Numbered from the stretch's first letter, positions 2,624-9,094 are shown. The stretch is 64,000 nucleotides of DNA from a virus (IMGVR_UViG_3300009550_000008), one strand, 5' to 3'. Made by a program: numbers and translations. Notes: generated from the sequence alone by a model not told the origin.

Positions 2624-3910
2624 ATGGCGTCAGGTAACCAAAAGGTTAAAACCCCTTCGGGTTGGAATGCAACTCAAGGTGCTTGGGTAAAAACAGGCAG
2701 TACAACTTGGAAGGCAGTAGATCAGATTTATATCAAGACTCCCGATGGATGGAATGATGCATCAGGACAAGAAGCAACGCAAATTCCTTACCCTTACATT
2801 GCAACTGGACAGGAACCAAACATTAGACAAACTATTGTTACATATCCTTACATTGCAAATGCTCAAGAACCAAATATAAGACAAACCATTGTTCCCTATC
2901 CTTACATTGCAAATGGTCAGGAACCTAACCAAAGATCAAGACAGATTTCTTATACCTATCAGGCACAGGCAAGACAACCAGTTGAATATCAATATGGTTC
3001 ACCGTTTACATACGATCATAGAGAACCTAATACATATTCAATAAGATCACCGTTTACATACGATCATAGGTCACCGTTCACTTATAATAGAACTGGAAGA
3101 AGTCCTTTTACTTATAATAGAACTGGTAGGACACCATTTACATATCAGGCACCAGCAAGACAACCTGCGACATATCAGGCTCCTGCTCGACAACCTTTTA
3201 TTGCAAATGCAAGACAACCGAATACATATCAAGCACCAGCAAGACAACCATTTATTGCAAGTGCAAGACAACCAGCAACATATCAAGCACCTGCGAGACA
3301 ACCGTTCATTGCATCTGCGAGACAACCTGCGACTTATCAAGCACCAGCAAGACAACCGTTCATTGCAAGTGCAAGAAACCCGTTCACTTATCAAGCAAGA
3401 ACACCAGTGTTTATACCAGGCGGTGGTGGTGGTTGCTTCAGTTCCGATATGCTTATTCTTATGGGTGATAATAGACTTATGCCTATCAGTGAAGTTCAAG
3501 CTGGAGACTTTGTATTATCATTTAACTTTGAAACTAACTTACTAGAATCTAGAGAAGTTGGTGCAATGATGGAACCAAGAGAAGATATACAACTATATAA
3601 TGTTAAACTTTCAAATGGTAACCACATTGAAATATCAGGTGGTCACCCAGTATCTACATCAAGAGGATGGAGATATATTAATGAGGATGCATGGAAAGTC
3701 GAAGTTGAAGCTGGAATTGCAGACTTCGAATGTGCAGAGGGTGAATTTGAAGTGGGTGACGAACTATTCTATTTCGGAGAACAAGAAGTGGTCGTTGAAA
3801 GTATAACTAAACAAGAAGAACTACAAACTACTTACAACATTGTATTAGTAGAAGGTAATGAAAACTATTTTGTGAATGGTGTTCTAGTTCATAACGGAGA
3901 GAAGAAGTAA
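2624..3910 (+). CDS. Repeat-rich fibre/adhesin-like protein A with C-terminal Hint (intein-like) domain
   Basis: Trp-rich N-terminus, 23 Pro-delimited 8/10-aa units, Gly5 linker, then a CF...SGGH...YFVNGVLVHN Hint domain; GAGG RBS. Confidence 0.8.
   Translation: MASGNQKVKTPSGWNATQGAWVKTGSTTWKAVDQIYIKTPDGWNDASGQEATQIPYPYIATGQEPNIRQTIVTYPYIANAQEPNIRQTIVPYPYIANGQEPNQRSRQISYTYQAQARQPVEYQYGSPFTYDHREPNTYSIRSPFTYDHRSPFTYNRTGRSPFTYNRTGRTPFTYQAPARQPATYQAPARQPFIANARQPNTYQAPARQPFIASARQPATYQAPARQPFIASARQPATYQAPARQPFIASARNPFTYQARTPVFIPGGGGGCFSSDMLILMGDNRLMPISEVQAGDFVLSFNFETNLLESREVGAMMEPREDIQLYNVKLSNGNHIEISGGHPVSTSRGWRYINEDAWKVEVEAGIADFECAEGEFEVGDELFYFGEQEVVVESITKQEELQTTYNIVLVEGNENYFVNGVLVHNGEKK
2786..3403 (+). 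repeat. Coding tandem array: 23 units of 8 or 10 aa (206 aa)
   Basis: Units such as PYPYIANAQE, PNIRQTIV, PFTYDHRS, PFTYNRTGRS, PATYQAPARQ, PFIASARQ. Confidence 0.9.
3434..3895 (+). other. Hint/BIL-type autoprocessing domain (154 aa, no homing endonuclease)
   Basis: Cys1 (TGC at 3434), block B SxxH, block F YNI...NYFVNG, terminal His-Asn followed by Gly-Glu-Lys-Lys-stop. Confidence 0.85.
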
Positions 3911-4602
3911 TGGCTCAACAACCGTATCCAGCTAGTGCCCAACAACCGTTTACTTATAACGCGCAGAATCCATTTACATATCCTGCGAATTATCAGAATC
4001 CGTTCACTTATAACGCACAGAACCCGTTCACATACCCAGCAAACTATCAGAACCCGTTCACATACAATGCACAGAATCCGTTTACTTATCCAGCAAACTA
4101 TCAGTCACCGTTTACGCATAATGCTCAGAATCCGTTTACTTACCCAGCAAACTATCAGAGTCCATTTACATATCCAGCAAATGCACAACAACCTTATCCG
4201 TATATTGCAAATGCACAACAACCGTATCCGTATACTGCAGTAGGACAACAACCTAATATTAGGGCTTCACAACAACCTGCGATTAAAGATAGACAATCAC
4301 CGTATATTGCAGCTGCACAGGAACCAAATATTAGAGATTTACAGAGTCCGTTTACATATATGAATCAGGGTCGAGTACCTCAGACATATATTCACCAGTC
4401 TCCATTTACATATTCAAGACAAGGTGATACACAACAGTCTTATGACCATAGAAGTCCATTTACTTATCAGGTTATTGCAAATACTCAGAACAACTATGAC
4501 CATAGGTCTCCGTTCACATATGCAAGACAGGGACGAACTCCTGAACCAAGATGGGATGGTGTGGTTACACAACAGTGGCCTGCGACTCCAATTACCTCTT
4601 AA
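3910..4602 (+). CDS. Repeat-rich protein B, mirror partner of 2624-3910
   Basis: TAATG stop/start coupling with the upstream ORF; 23 units of 8/10 aa from the same vocabulary. Confidence 0.8.
   Translation: MAQQPYPASAQQPFTYNAQNPFTYPANYQNPFTYNAQNPFTYPANYQNPFTYNAQNPFTYPANYQSPFTHNAQNPFTYPANYQSPFTYPANAQQPYPYIANAQQPYPYTAVGQQPNIRASQQPAIKDRQSPYIAAAQEPNIRDLQSPFTYMNQGRVPQTYIHQSPFTYSRQGDTQQSYDHRSPFTYQVIANTQNNYDHRSPFTYARQGRTPEPRWDGVVTQQWPATPITS
3922..4539 (+). repeat. Coding tandem array: 23 units of 8 or 10 aa (206 aa)
   Basis: Units such as PFTYNAQN, PFTYPANYQN, PYPYIANAQQ, PNIRASQQ, QNNYDHRS, PFTYARQGRT. Confidence 0.9.
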
Positions 4603-4623: not shown

Positions 4624-6189
4624 ATGTTAAAGACCATAGAAAACCTTGAACAAGCACGCAACTTTGAATTTAATACTCAGGGTATTGTTACCCAAGGATA
4701 TCAACAAGAAGCAATACGATTAGCAAATTCATATGATTTTGCAAGACCTAATAATGAAACGAGTGTTGATTGTTGGCAAGTGATGAAGTATGCCTTTGAG
4801 TCTCAACCACCTATAAAAAAGGTTCATTGGGAACAGATAAAAGAAAGGATAAATGATAATACATTACATACATTTGGACAATTACATCACAATTCTGTAC
4901 AGTATCTTAGATATGTTCAAGATGGTTGGACAGAAAAACTAAGACCCGACCATCCTATTGGTGGTGGTTCGATGGACTTTATGAATTATGATGATGAGTA
5001 TCAATGGTTATCAACTGTTAGTGACCATCCTGATTGTAATCAATTAAATCCAAGAGAAGAGAATACTCTAAGTTCATGTTATTATCACGCTGCAAAAGCA
5101 CACTGGTTAGTAAACAACATTCAGAAAGAAGGATTGAGACATCCTATCCAAGGACATACACATAAAAGTACAAGTGCCTCAGAATTTGGATTGACTATTC
5201 ATCCAGGCTCGATCAGATGTAGAGTAATGGAGACCCTTGATGACAATGAACTATATGTTTTAGTTACTGATTTTGAAAATGTATTTGATGAAGTAGAACC
5301 TTTTACATTCGAAGAGATGATGGATATGTGGGGTGAGTTAGGTAATAACAAAGGTAATCTATCTGCAATATTCGTTGATGGTAAAATAGAATGGTCACTA
5401 TCATCTACAGCTGGACTTGATTTTAGAGATGAAGTTTTTGATTTCAATAGAAAGGTAACTAAGTTAACGAAGAAAAAACCAGTTAACATATATCTTGGAT
5501 ACGATTCATCACATAGTGAGGTATACGATGTTGCAGAAGCTTCTATTCATCATTCTATAGAGAAATGTAAGAGTGGTGGTGTATCACATGAATTCTTTAA
5601 TGACTATAAGATAGAAGTCAAGAAACTTGACATTAATGCAATTTCAGAGTATACTAGACCTTACGCAAATCAATCTACTGAGTTTACTTACAGTAGATTC
5701 CTCATTCCATATCTAGAGAACTATGAAGGATTCAGTTTCTTTATAGATGACGATTACATATGGCAATGGTCACCTACATCCTTATTCTATTTCTTAGACC
5801 CTGAACATGCAATTGCTTGTGTTCAGTATCAGTTCGATCACCATGATGAAACCAAAATGGATGGTGAGAAGAATGTATCATATCCTAAAAAACTTTGGTC
5901 AAGTATGATGATCTTTAACAATGGTCATGAGGATTGTAAAAAATTAACACCCGAAGTTGTGAATACTGCAAGTGGACAATACTTACATCAGTTTGAATGG
6001 ACAGATCAGATCAGTGAAATCCCAGGCCATAAGATTGCAACAGAAGGATATGATAGTGAGTTATTAAAGACTCACCATGCAGTTCATTATACAAGAGGAG
6101 GCCCATGGATAAAAGACATGGATTATTCCAACATAAATATGTTAGAACTGTATAAACAGATGAAAAACAAGTTGCCAAAAAGCAACTAA
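4624..6189 (+). CDS. Fusion of a ParB/Srx-like N-terminal region and a GT-A glycosyltransferase
   Basis: C-terminal half has IYLGYDS, STEFTYSRFLIPYL, a DDD (DxD) motif, WSSMMIFN and HYTRGGPW; N-terminal half has WLVNNIQKEGLRHPI...HPGSIR. Confidence 0.7.
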   Translation: MLKTIENLEQARNFEFNTQGIVTQGYQQEAIRLANSYDFARPNNETSVDCWQVMKYAFESQPPIKKVHWEQIKERINDNTLHTFGQLHHNSVQYLRYVQDGWTEKLRPDHPIGGGSMDFMNYDDEYQWLSTVSDHPDCNQLNPREENTLSSCYYHAAKAHWLVNNIQKEGLRHPIQGHTHKSTSASEFGLTIHPGSIRCRVMETLDDNELYVLVTDFENVFDEVEPFTFEEMMDMWGELGNNKGNLSAIFVDGKIEWSLSSTAGLDFRDEVFDFNRKVTKLTKKKPVNIYLGYDSSHSEVYDVAEASIHHSIEKCKSGGVSHEFFNDYKIEVKKLDINAISEYTRPYANQSTEFTYSRFLIPYLENYEGFSFFIDDDYIWQWSPTSLFYFLDPEHAIACVQYQFDHHDETKMDGEKNVSYPKKLWSSMMIFNNGHEDCKKLTPEVVNTASGQYLHQFEWTDQISEIPGHKIATEGYDSELLKTHHAVHYTRGGPWIKDMDYSNINMLELYKQMKNKLPKSN

Positions 6190-6200
6190 TATGTTATAAT
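6172..6200 (+). promoter_or_regulatory. Sigma70-like promoter
   Basis: TTGCCA-N17-TATAAT upstream of ORF 6210. Confidence 0.5.
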
Positions 6201-6209
6201 GGAGATATT

Positions 6210-6779
6210 ATGAATTGTTTAATATACGATCAATGGGGTAATCTTTTTATAAGAAAACCTAATGGACTTGAGTGGAGACATGAAAATGTCGATAGACCTG
6301 CTTTAGGTTTTGACTTTGATGTTCTTATATACGATGATGTTGAATTTAAAATTGAAAAATTTGAAGACGGCAAAGAAATGGAAGAACAGGAAAAGCAACC
6401 CTTAACTGAAACCGATAAAGATGCCATCGAGGCATATATTGAAAATGCTGAACCCCCTAGTGGTGTCAGTCTAAACCAACAATATGTTGGGAGAATTGCA
6501 GAAGTTGTTAGAAACAATGTTATGCATCAATGTGAGAAATATGGATTCGATGATATGATCGAAGTATTGATGGCTGCAAGAGAAGGTTCTGCACATCCAT
6601 ATCGATCAAATGCTAGAAGAGCATTAGAATATTCAGATGCAGTAGCAAATGTTGCAGAGGGTGTATTCAGAGAGATTCAAATCACTAGAGAAGATACACT
6701 TAAACCTTTAGATGAATACATAATGCAAATACCACCTCCGTCTATTGGTGTTGGTAGAGATCAGTCTGTAGTAGGTTAA
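6210..6779 (+). CDS. Hypothetical protein, tail-fibre-assembly-like
   Basis: KYGFDDM...HPYRSNARRALEYSDAV resembles the C-terminal motif of fibre-adjacent chaperone-like proteins. Confidence 0.4.
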   Translation: MNCLIYDQWGNLFIRKPNGLEWRHENVDRPALGFDFDVLIYDDVEFKIEKFEDGKEMEEQEKQPLTETDKDAIEAYIENAEPPSGVSLNQQYVGRIAEVVRNNVMHQCEKYGFDDMIEVLMAAREGSAHPYRSNARRALEYSDAVANVAEGVFREIQITREDTLKPLDEYIMQIPPPSIGVGRDQSVVG

Positions 6780-6780
6780 C

Positions 6781-7497
6781 ATGCCCTCATTCGACTCGAT
6801 CAATGTCGAACACATTGAGTCCCCTTTTTACATCGAAGACATGCCTTTGGGTAATACTGTCTATGTTATAGATGATTATCTAGAGTCTTCACTTCATAAA
6901 GCCATGCATAGACATTTAGATCAGTGTTCATGGCAAAAGACTAATCAAGTCGATTATAGGGGCCCGAATCGAGGAGGACTTCCTAATCATTCTTTATGGG
7001 GATGTTCTTTTATAGTAGGTGAAAAACAAAATGATGGATATCTAAATGGTGCATCAGGATGTTCTAATTATTTAATTAGATGGTTTAATAGAAGACTAGA
7101 AACAGACTTTGGTTTTGCATGGGTAAGGTTTCAATATGCTGGTGCAAACTCTCAAACCCATGGTCAACATGGAACATGTCATGCAGATTGTCAGAAAGAT
7201 GATGAATGGAATCTTTCCTTTCTTTATTATACAAATAGATTTTGGAATCCACACTGGGGTGGTAAGTTAAGATTCTATAGTGAAAATAGAGAAGGTGGAA
7301 TCTTAGAACAAATGGATGATGTCGAAATAGGTTCCATTGATTTCAAACCAAATCGTCTCTTAATGTTTGATGGAAGAATACAACATGGTGCAGAAGCTCC
7401 ATCAGAAGATGCACGATATATAGATAGAAGATCAATTGTCGTTAGAGGAGACGAGATCGAGTTATTAAATAGGGGAGATAGATATGCCTACAATTGA
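6781..7497 (+). CDS. 2OG-Fe(II) oxygenase (prolyl-hydroxylase-like)
   Basis: HAD...WGGKLRF...FDGRIQH...R; HxD...H facial triad. Confidence 0.85.
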   Translation: MPSFDSINVEHIESPFYIEDMPLGNTVYVIDDYLESSLHKAMHRHLDQCSWQKTNQVDYRGPNRGGLPNHSLWGCSFIVGEKQNDGYLNGASGCSNYLIRWFNRRLETDFGFAWVRFQYAGANSQTHGQHGTCHADCQKDDEWNLSFLYYTNRFWNPHWGGKLRFYSENREGGILEQMDDVEIGSIDFKPNRLLMFDGRIQHGAEAPSEDARYIDRRSIVVRGDEIELLNRGDRYAYN

Positions 7498-8410
7498 GTT
7501 TAGAACATATAATAAACCATCGTTTGAAATGTTCAGACCAGTTGCAGCTAAATCTATGCAACCTGAATGGTGGAAGAAACAAAAGATTCGTGTAGATCAT
7601 CGTGGTCGTGTTGCACAAACAATAAGGTCTTGTCCTTCAATGCAAGACTGGTTAACAATGGGATATTATATTGTTTCAAGTGTTGATATCCCAATTAGAA
7701 ATGGATTAGATTGGAACTGGCCTAGTGGAGAAAGATTCTCTACGGATGAAGAAATTCCAGTACATTCTAGATCACACCCGTCTGCTCAAATGCAAGATTC
7801 TATAGAGTATTTGGGAGACGATGGCCCAGTTAAAGATGCATTTAAAATATCATCTTACTGGAATATGAAAACCCCGCCGGGCTATTCTGTTTTATTTTTA
7901 GACCCTTTCCTGTTTCAGAATAAATACTTTGCATGTTGGCAAGGAGTGATTGATACTGATGAGTTCAATGTTAATTTGGACAATGCACACATCATATTCT
8001 ATCCTAAAGTAAACCATTCATTTGTTATACCAGCTGGTACTCCACTGGTACAAGTGTTCCCATTTAAGAGGGAAGAATGGACATCAACATATTTTTTTCA
8101 AGAGCACTCAGATTGGCATAAGAATCATGGAACACATGAGAAGTCAATGCAAAAATGGCAAAGGAGTTTGGAATTGGTAGATGCAGATGGAACACCTAAT
8201 GAGAAGATCAACATCGGTGGTTATAGGAATGCTAAAATTTGGAAACCAAAGAGTAGATTCTTTGATAAACCCGAAGAAGTAAACCCACCACCTGAATGTC
8301 CAATGCACAGATCAGAAGAACAGCTGGAAATGGACTTTAATGATAAACAACGAGAGTTGACAGATTTAAATTGGGACGGTTCGGAGTCAAAGAAAATAGA
8401 TAGAGATTAG
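7484..8410 (+). CDS. Conserved phage protein (DUF6065-like) typical of oxygenase clusters
   Basis: TIRSCPSMQD, WNMKTPPGYSVLF, GVIDTD, IPAGTPLVQVFPFKR motifs. Confidence 0.55.
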   Translation: MPTIEFRTYNKPSFEMFRPVAAKSMQPEWWKKQKIRVDHRGRVAQTIRSCPSMQDWLTMGYYIVSSVDIPIRNGLDWNWPSGERFSTDEEIPVHSRSHPSAQMQDSIEYLGDDGPVKDAFKISSYWNMKTPPGYSVLFLDPFLFQNKYFACWQGVIDTDEFNVNLDNAHIIFYPKVNHSFVIPAGTPLVQVFPFKREEWTSTYFFQEHSDWHKNHGTHEKSMQKWQRSLELVDADGTPNEKINIGGYRNAKIWKPKSRFFDKPEEVNPPPECPMHRSEEQLEMDFNDKQRELTDLNWDGSESKKIDRD

Positions 8411-8413
8411 ATT

Positions 8414-9094
8414 ATGTCAGTTAGATTATTATTTCCAACATTACTTTTTGAGTATAACTTGTTGGAAGAAGGGTTAGTTACTCAAACATATTTGGATGAA
8501 TTAAAAGCAGATATGGATGCAATGAGAATGAAAGACCCAGTGGGAAGACAGATTTCTAATGCATATACTGGTTGGCAATCGAATGATGGTTGTGAGTCTA
8601 GGCCTGCATGGGTAAAAATGATGAGAATCATTAAAGAGAAATTCAACCAAGAGATACTTCCTTTTAGTGGAGTGGATACATCAAAATTCCAAGTTAGAAT
8701 GGGTAATTGTTGGGCAAATGTAAATGATAGAGGTGCATGGAATAAACCACATGGTCACAATGGATGTTGGTGGAGTGGTGCATTATATATTAATGCAGAA
8801 GGTGACGAAGGAGATTTCGTTGCAATCAATACAGACCCTAAAGTATTAAGTGACTTCCCAGCTGCACCTAGGTTTAGAGAGAATCATTGTATAAGACCTA
8901 TCTCAGGAACACTTCTTTGTTTCCCTAGTGGTCTACTACATATGGTTGAACCTAATGCATCAAGTAATGATAGATACAGTGTTGCATTTAATATGAATAA
9001 CGAAAGGTTAAGTGGGTCACCTCAAGAGACAGCAATTCCTATAGATGACAACTGGAATAAATTCGATATAGAAGAAGGCGAAGTAAAGAGATAA
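8414..9094 (+). CDS. 2OG-Fe(II) oxygenase, TIGR02466-like
   Basis: LFPT, GWQS, WANVN...NKPHGH...SGALY...FPSGLLHMVEPN...RYSVAFN. Confidence 0.85.
   Translation: MSVRLLFPTLLFEYNLLEEGLVTQTYLDELKADMDAMRMKDPVGRQISNAYTGWQSNDGCESRPAWVKMMRIIKEKFNQEILPFSGVDTSKFQVRMGNCWANVNDRGAWNKPHGHNGCWWSGALYINAEGDEGDFVAINTDPKVLSDFPAAPRFRENHCIRPISGTLLCFPSGLLHMVEPNASSNDRYSVAFNMNNERLSGSPQETAIPIDDNWNKFDIEEGEVKR

Follow-up and report, generated by a model that had tools for sequence, protein, structure and literature searches.

What does a Hint domain do at the very end of a phage fibre-type protein when none of the few residues behind it can serve as the nucleophile of protein splicing? The question is raised by gene A in a stretch of viral DNA of 64,000 nucleotides (IMGVR_UViG_3300009550_000008; the whole stretch analysed is referred to below as the window), whose product carries a Hint domain with an otherwise complete catalytic set, a Gly residue in position +1 (Gly425) and only the tetrapeptide GEKK after the domain. 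Our comparison of gene A with its orthologues, together with structure prediction, makes it probable that this domain is a self-excising insertion resembling the type-A bacterial intein-like (BIL) domains, and that it is placed in the C-terminal 'turn' of the fibre protein A. Ligation of A to the product of the neighbouring gene B, conjugation of A to lysine residues and the absence of any processing were weighed as alternatives.

Catalytic layout and fold of the Hint domain

The open reading frame, the PVFIP-GGGGG stretch, Cys1, SGGH, His-Asn, GEKK and the stop codon, which an earlier, sequence-only reading of this DNA had described, were all found at the places that it had given. The arrangement of gene A, of its Hint domain and of gene B is as follows:

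2624..3910, plus strand: gene A, 428-residue fibre-type repeat protein (precursor), stop included (open reading frame list and sequence)
2624..2788, plus strand: conserved N-terminal domain of A, residues 1–55, beginning with MASGNQKVKTPSGWN; 78–100% identical in 80 viral loci
2789..3418, plus strand: Pro/Tyr/Gln/Arg-rich repeat region, residues 56–265 (from the translation)
3419..3433, plus strand: poly-Gly, Gly266–Gly270, with Gly270 as the −1 residue at the scissile bond (from the sequence)
3434..3895, plus strand: Hint (BIL-like) domain, Cys271–Asn424, 154 residues (Pfam, AlphaFold2, Foldseek and conservation)
3434–3436, plus strand: catalytic Cys271 (from the sequence)
3635–3646, plus strand: block B, Ser338-Gly-Gly-His341 (from the sequence)
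3890–3895, plus strand: His423-Asn424 (from the sequence)
3896..3907, plus strand: C-extein GEKK, residues 425–428; +1 is Gly and two Lys end the protein
3896..3912, plus strand: GGAG (3896–3899) in the codons of the tail, 10 nucleotides 5' of the ATG of B (read from the sequence)
3908–3910, plus strand: TAA stop of A, overlapping the ATG of B (3910–3912) as TAATG
3910..4602, plus strand: gene B, 230-residue partner repeat protein, starting with MAQQ and ending with ...QQWPATPITS (open reading frame list)

Residues 261–270 of A read PVFIPGGGGG, and the N-terminal domain, the repeats and the poly-Gly together form the N-extein, presumably the mature protein of A. The Hint domain is the only one within the window. 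No Cys, Ser or Thr occurs anywhere in the four-residue GEKK tail that follows it, and with Gly instead of a nucleophile in position +1 canonical class-1 splicing is excluded, in agreement with the sequence-only reading. The GGAG in the tail codons is likely to be the Shine–Dalgarno site of B, and the TAATG overlap suggests translational coupling of the two genes.

The domain was recognised by the Pfam model Intein_splicing (PF14890), which scored 36.5 bits on the whole protein and 40.8 bits (E value 2.4e-10) on the isolated domain at a cut-off of 35.8, the match spanning profile positions 3–155 of 155. The matches to the Pfam models Hint and Vint were sub-threshold, and the NCBIfam models intein_Nterm and intein_Cterm both stayed below their cut-offs, so that the Hint of A has to be considered a divergent member. 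The AlphaFold2 model was obtained from a 31-sequence alignment in which the block-B His is invariant and Cys1 is at least 90% conserved; it is an all-beta horseshoe with a mean predicted local distance difference test score (pLDDT) of 90.5 and a predicted template modelling score (pTM) of 0.87. His423-Asn424 is invariant in the alignment A1.

When this model was compared with the PDB by Foldseek, the first rank was taken by BIL2 of the Tetrahymena thermophila BUBL1 locus (6y75/6tmm; E value 2e-11, template modelling (TM) score 0.78/0.87) and DnaB mini-inteins came after it, with the BIL of C. thermocellum (2lwy) at rank 7 (TM 0.86 normalised to 2lwy) and Hedgehog (1at0) at rank 31. At E ≤ 1e-3 the PDB yielded 63 matches, those listed being inteins, BILs or Hedgehog without exception. 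By sequence alone the best PDB match was also BIL2 (6tmm, E value 1.5e-5). In sequence as well as in fold, the nearest solved relatives belong to the BIL domains and not to the canonical inteins or to Hedgehog. The profile score above the cut-off, the high pLDDT of the model and its Foldseek match to BIL2 bear out the earlier proposal that A contains a real Hint domain.

An optional insertion near the end of gene A

The N-terminal domain of 55 residues retrieved 80 viral loci, all on contigs that are fragments, and 78 of these loci contained a complete orthologue of A. The Hint domain was present in 18 of the 78, each time preceded by poly-Gly and followed by a tail of 4–29 residues. As many as 49 orthologues end soon after the Gly-rich motif (e.g., ...LPGGGSPGHQQK, ...QPPGGEKE or ...GGGNFCEP), and 11 possess an unrelated globular C-terminal domain. 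The fibre family of A has at least three alternative distal architectures (short, Hint and globular), its C-terminal end being the variable part. Hint-bearing loci appear at no fewer than five separate points of the tree of the gene upstream of A, with Hint-less sisters next to them each time; this tree was built by FastTree without support values shown, from the C-terminal 300 residues of a 611-residue protein, a marker conserved across the loci.

In the loci L062–L064, L072, L075, L076, L078, L081–L083 and L085 the globular C-terminal domain comprises 150–250 residues, B is not present and an open reading frame of 86–95 residues follows.

The poly-Gly stands at the same place in the Hint-less orthologues, and the sequences flanking the Hint could be aligned with them after excision of the domain in silico. 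The sequence ...PGGGGG/GEKK of the window aligns with ...PPGGEKE of L071, and on the DNA level GGAGAGAAGAAGTAATG in the window corresponds to GGGGAGAAAGAATAATG in L071, the TAATG stop/start overlap being common to both. In the same way ...GGG/RQQK of L041 aligns with ...HQQK of L012 and L013, ...GGGGG/MAKQIFDPGG.. of L033 with ...GGGGGSFVPVFGPGG.. (SFVPVFGPGG) of L025, and /..GFVPLKR of L059 with ..GFNPLTK of L035. This colinearity of the excised protein and DNA with the Hint-less orthologues shows that the domain is a precise, intein-like insertion, GEKK being the four-residue C-extein. Judged from these alignments, HN-GEKK-stop is no truncated oddity; the Hint has been inserted into its host protein at a distance of four residues from the natural C-terminus.

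Two other explanations of the sequences behind the poly-Gly were considered and rejected. The residues SFV of L025 might have been the scar of a deleted Hint (CFV...), but the sister locus L023 reads GYV at this place, and the four residues of L025 are the counterpart of MAKQ in the tail of L033; the domain is thus precisely present or absent. The tail might also have been kept merely as the ribosome-binding site of B, but this cannot explain the tails of 10–29 residues or the tails in the loci lacking B; in the window the ribosome-binding site may add a constraint on the tail.

The position +1 in the 18 Hint-bearing loci and in 12 A-type relatives from the databases is occupied by Gly, Ala, Met, Phe, Tyr or Arg and never by Cys, Ser or Thr; the lack of a nucleophile first noticed in the window extends to its homologues. 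The A-hosted Hints are 23–66% identical between lineages (78–100% in the N-terminal domain of their host protein). Despite this divergence, 14 distinct A-hosted Hints without exception possess Cys1, the block-B motif (T/S)xxH with its His and the His-Asn end, which argues for maintained autoprocessing. The tails diverge far faster than the Hints that precede them (20–27% against 89–93% identity in L033/L036/L043, and 59% against 96% in L058/L067), and the C-extein is therefore taken to be largely disposable. As the insert lies so near the C-terminal end that the loss of the C-extein costs almost nothing, a Hint that does not ligate its flanks could persist at this position. The Hint itself, to judge from the orthologues, is dispensable for the fibre.

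A further, independent argument for the activity of the domain is given by the lengths of A and B. Gene B with its conserved C-terminal motif was found in 51 of the 78 loci, and in these the length of the N-extein of A follows the length of B very closely (r = 0.989, n = 51 loci), A being about 42 residues longer. In the Hint-bearing loci the difference between A and B amounts to 36–47 residues with the Hint left out, which is inside the common length relation. Since the lengths fit with the N-extein alone being counted, the functional, paired part of A excludes the Hint. This covariation strongly suggests that A and B form an in-register two-chain structure.

These data also bear on the possibility that the Hint is never processed, remaining at the end of the fibre as a knob with a structural or binding role, or that it is a decaying relic. 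Such a role would be in line with the variability of the fibre C-terminus, where some of the orthologues carry unrelated globular domains (L062, L072 and L075). In a knob or a relic, however, there would have been no retention of Cys1, of the His of block B and of the His-Asn, which are invariant down to a Hint identity of 23%, and the A/B length rule leaves the Hint out. We consider an unprocessed Hint very unlikely.

Gene B, lysine residues and the fate of the thioester

If the domain removes itself, as we think probable, the reaction would start with the attack of Cys271 on the carbonyl of Gly270 (an N–S acyl shift assisted by His341 of block B) yielding a Gly270 thioester; cyclisation of Asn424, assisted by His423, would free GEKK, and either water or an amine of the tail would resolve the thioester. 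A branched intermediate cannot form because there is no Cys, Ser or Thr in position +1. The water route would produce mature A ending at Gly270, and the amine route A(1–270) joined to GEKK; the amine could belong to the N-terminus of the tail (the α-amine of Gly425, which is the proposal for A-type BILs) or to the side chain of a Lys, the situation found in the BUBL BIL2. By both routes the 17-kDa domain would leave and the product would resemble the Hint-less orthologues, in which the poly-Gly is followed by a few polar residues. BIL domains without a +1 nucleophile are described as giving mainly cleaved products (PMC7664689, citing Amitai 2003 and Aranko 2013; also PMC7765530), ligation 'without nucleophilic side chains' has been achieved with a BIL (PMC7664689, citing Aranko 2013), and A-type BILs sometimes splice by an alternative route that joins their flanks (PMC5874633). 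The sequence-only reading had offered a self-removing assembly chaperone as one of its options. The self-removal is what we favour too; the domain may also serve transiently as a folding or assembly cap, which the data do not require.

Another option of that reading was a ligation in trans, in which the Hint would join the C-terminal Gly of A to the N-terminus of B and an antiparallel hairpin would be closed into one chain. The translational coupling of A and B through TAATG agrees with such a scheme, and so does the covariation of their lengths, by which they very likely pair; if the pair is antiparallel, the C-terminal end of A would adjoin the N-terminal end of B. Ligation through a plain α-amine by a BIL has a precedent (Aranko 2013, cited in PMC7664689), and a single-chain paralogue with two repeat arms is encoded upstream of A in G001, the virus record nearest to the window. 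The composition of the loci, however, speaks against the ligation. Gene B is not at the locus in 6 of the 18 Hint-bearing loci: A is directly followed by a 516–517-residue homologue of the 521-residue product of the next gene of the window in L033, L036, L037, L043 and L047, and no open reading frame of B was detected in L088, the sixth of them. Conversely, there are 39 A/B pairs without the Hint, in which A ends in poly-Gly and a short tail, so that the pair does not need the domain. The detected B proteins start with Met-Ala, Met-Pro, Met-Ser or Met-Val in Hint-bearing and Hint-less loci alike, often with an N-terminal Pro and never with Met-Cys, and the B protein of the window is devoid of Cys. 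No fusion of A to B was found among the 78 complete orthologues of A, none of which ends in the B-type C-terminal motif. Poly-Gly, Hint and short tail are found in the same combination at the end of unrelated phage proteins without any B-like partner, and the centre of the single-chain paralogue is free of poly-Gly. Furthermore, the tail matches the C-terminal ends of Hint-less orthologues, which makes the domain an insertion inside A and not a module of the A/B junction. The ligation of A to B appears to us highly improbable. The B product itself gave no match to Pfam, PHROG or NCBIfam.

The junctions of the Hint were also followed in its wider family. A HMMER search with the Hint among 1.84 billion cluster representatives found 2461 representatives at E ≤ 1e-3, and the counts given here comprise all the domains in the best 150 of the 2461 family proteins and in six proteins found earlier. 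Cys1 was present in 268 of 269 domains and His-Asn at 245 of 257 aligned domain ends, and the −1 residue was mostly Gly, Cys or Ser, with Gly the commonest. At +1 the domains ending in His-Asn (n = 244) have Lys in 129 cases (53%), Ala in 26, Arg in 19 and Gly in 12; Cys, Ser or Thr occurs in 22 (9%), leaving 91% of the domains without a +1 nucleophile. Lys was found within positions +1 to +6 in 69% of the family domains, the background Lys frequency being 5%. Many members of the family are back-to-back arrays of two to seven Hints, and in others one Hint follows a Gly run and caps the C-terminus of a phage tail or structural protein. One of the capped proteins (P0147) matches the PHROG 'tail protein' and the Pfam family Prophage_tail, and the contig of P0085 also carries a T4 rIIB-like gene. 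Most of the A-hosted Hints form one clade of the domain tree, inside which P0063, P0064, P0073, P0085 and P0086, belonging to a different phage host protein, are nested and outside which the L033 group falls; this tree was made by FastTree without support values and carries no firm conclusion on transfers.

The enrichment of Lys after the Hint is relevant to the third alternative, a conjugation of the BUBL type, in which the Gly270 thioester would be passed to the ε-amine of Lys427 or Lys428 or of a Lys in another virion or host-surface protein, the outcome being an ATP-free isopeptide cross-link or a branched fibre end. The closest solved relative of the domain by sequence and fold, TthBIL2, forms an isopeptide between a C-terminus and the ε-amino group of Lys and conjugates ubl4 to ubl5 and to Ras (PMC8616854). 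Gly-Gly precedes Cys1 in A as it does in the ubiquitin-like substrates, and Lys is present in every A-type tail inspected; the 215-residue repeat region of A contains none and B contains one. On the other side, the Hint-less orthologues make the same fibre, hence a cross-link is not essential; several of these orthologues end in Lys themselves (HQQK, PQIK), and the Lys of the tail may be inherited from the host gene. The tails are otherwise unconstrained, and no acceptor-recognition domain is attached to the Hint. We regard this fate of the thioester as unlikely. It is decidedly unlikely, in our estimate, that the glycine–Hint–lysine arrangement is an ATP-independent phage conjugation device, a viral counterpart of BUBL that would transfer the Gly thioester to Lys of the tail, of a virion partner or of the host surface. 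Were this true, the fibre tip would be covalently locked or branched, and the presence or absence of the domain would act as a switch between cross-linked and plain fibres.

Several observations weigh against the self-excision that we prefer. The conservation of the catalytic residues would be equally expected if the thioester served a useful transfer reaction. Each of the A-type Hint tails inspected contains Lys, and this, together with the Lys in position +1 in 53% of the wider family, hints at a chemical role beyond hydrolysis. The PT-HINT model (PF07591), which is the closest to A-type BILs, stayed below its cut-off of 27.7 with scores of 16.9 for the protein and 21.0 for the isolated domain, and the block-F Asp of many inteins is represented by Asn or His in the A-hosted Hints (VYN/VYH). 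The loci were sampled by N-terminal peptide patterns and near-identical contigs are duplicated in the sample, and the absence of B applies to the locus alone, as seen in contigs that are fragments.

Some members of the wider family deserve a separate description. In P0007, P0009, P0011, P0013, P0024, P0025 and P0028 and at the locus L093, 4–7 intact Hints are connected by joints of 1–5 residues (...VHN-K(GG)-CF...), so that every Hint has its Cys1 and His-Asn and there is hardly any extein between them; the P0007 gene sits among overlapping genes of prokaryote or virus style. P0005 (710 residues, subtilase-type) and P0006 (617 residues, unrelated) end in a related Hint without the terminal His-Asn (...GVLVY followed by a stop, and ...GVLVYDEQK, respectively), and may represent N-cleavage-only versions of the same cap. 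In P0045, a metagenomic BUBL-like protein of 810 residues, ...RLRGA-CF is found before the Hints and HN-(S/A)(W/M)QIFV(R/K)TLTGK, a ubiquitin-like start, after them; its Hints adjoin the L033-type phage Hints in the domain tree.

Genomic setting and known systems

The window belongs to an uncultured marine T4-like myovirus and includes genes for a tail sheath, a head scaffold, gp13/14/15-like proteins and a DNA polymerase; its tail sheath is 47–51% identical to those of Pelagibacter and Methylophilales myophages. The copy of gene A in the record G001 is 96% identical to that of the window. A nucleotide search (blastn) with A and B in 50,697 phage records gave no match, nor did a translated search (tblastn) with the N-terminal domain of A, no cultured relative with gene A being present there; tblastn with the Hint in the same records found only true inteins in the helicase and polymerase genes of Vibrio phages, at 26–33% identity. 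The genome to which the window belongs, or a very close one, may have been omitted from these collections.

The upstream gene used as the phylogenetic marker (768–2603, 611 residues) encodes a tail-fibre-type protein with PHROG matches to tail fibre and structural proteins. The region 4624–9094, directly 3' of A and B, contains the gene of the 521-residue protein and two 2-oxoglutarate (2OG)-Fe(II)-oxygenase-like genes. The C-terminal half of the 521-residue protein is similar to glycosyltransferases of phages (34% identity to genes of S-SCSM2R and Mosig), and the products of these three genes are possible candidates for fibre-modifying enzymes. The single-chain paralogue of G001 (G001:C1; L004 346–1800, minus strand) lies about 6 kb upstream of A and has 484 residues, with A-like and B-like repeat arms, a different N-terminal end and a different C-terminal domain, and no Hint.

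Hint domains of the BIL type have been described in surface and toxin proteins of bacteria and in the polyubiquitin loci of ciliates; when we searched the literature for such domains on the fibres of phages, only canonical inteins, located in genes of terminase or ribonucleotide reductase, came to light. The locus offers a natural experiment, in which the same fibre gene exists with and without the Hint, at one precise site 4–29 residues from the end and in at least five lineages, and the two kinds of alleles of one protein provide clean controls for biochemistry. If the processing is efficient, these domains would be small natural self-cleaving tags yielding Gly thioesters, which would be of interest to protein engineers; if the thioester goes to lysines, as in the BUBL BIL2, they would supply an enzyme-free cross-linking chemistry for parts of the phage virion.

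A functional parallel on phage fibres is the Peptidase_S74-type chaperone of tailspikes and fibres, which is also a C-terminal module removing itself after its job is done. Its fold, however, is unrelated, it is a protease with a Ser-Lys dyad, and it is essential for trimer folding, whereas the Hint of A is absent from most orthologues. The Hedgehog Hog-Hint shares with the Hint of A the Gly-Cys-Phe scissile site, the C-terminal location and the thioester chemistry that frees the N-terminal part, but it lacks the terminal His-Asn and its nucleophile is supplied by a sterol-recognition region, while the Hint of A ends in His-Asn and has only GEKK after it. The class-1 mini-inteins (e.g., Ssp/Npu DnaB and gp41-1) are alike in fold and catalytic blocks, in the lack of an endonuclease domain and in being precise insertions with intein-free alleles continuous across the site. 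The Hint of A differs from them in having no Cys, Ser or Thr in position +1 and in lying near the end of a variable structural protein instead of a conserved site of a replication enzyme.

BIL2 of Tetrahymena BUBL1 (6TMM/6Y75) has the same Gly-Gly before Cys1, the His-Asn end and a non-nucleophilic +1 residue, at 22% identity to the Hint of A. It is located between two folded ubiquitin-like domains, of which the upstream one is transferred to Lys, whereas the Hint of A has a repeat fibre upstream and a tetrapeptide downstream. By sequence the domain cannot be assigned to the A-type group, since PT-HINT is below its cut-off, the domain tree contains no known A-type BIL and the nearest relative is the ciliate BIL2 and not 2LWY. 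The type-A BILs (Amitai 2003; Dassa 2004; C. thermocellum 2LWY, 24% identical to the Hint of A) nevertheless combine the same small fold, N-terminal Cys, block-B His and His-Asn with the absence of a +1 nucleophile and with a position in a variable part of surface or structural proteins that are not conserved. By analogy with them, N- and C-terminal self-cleavage with occasional amine-mediated splicing would be expected of the Hint of A. Their hosts are secreted proteins or toxins of bacteria and not a phage fibre protein, and the Hint of A is further distinguished by the four residues after it, with no C-terminal cargo, by its Gly-rich −1 and Lys-rich +1 flanks and by its precise presence/absence polymorphism within one orthologous gene.

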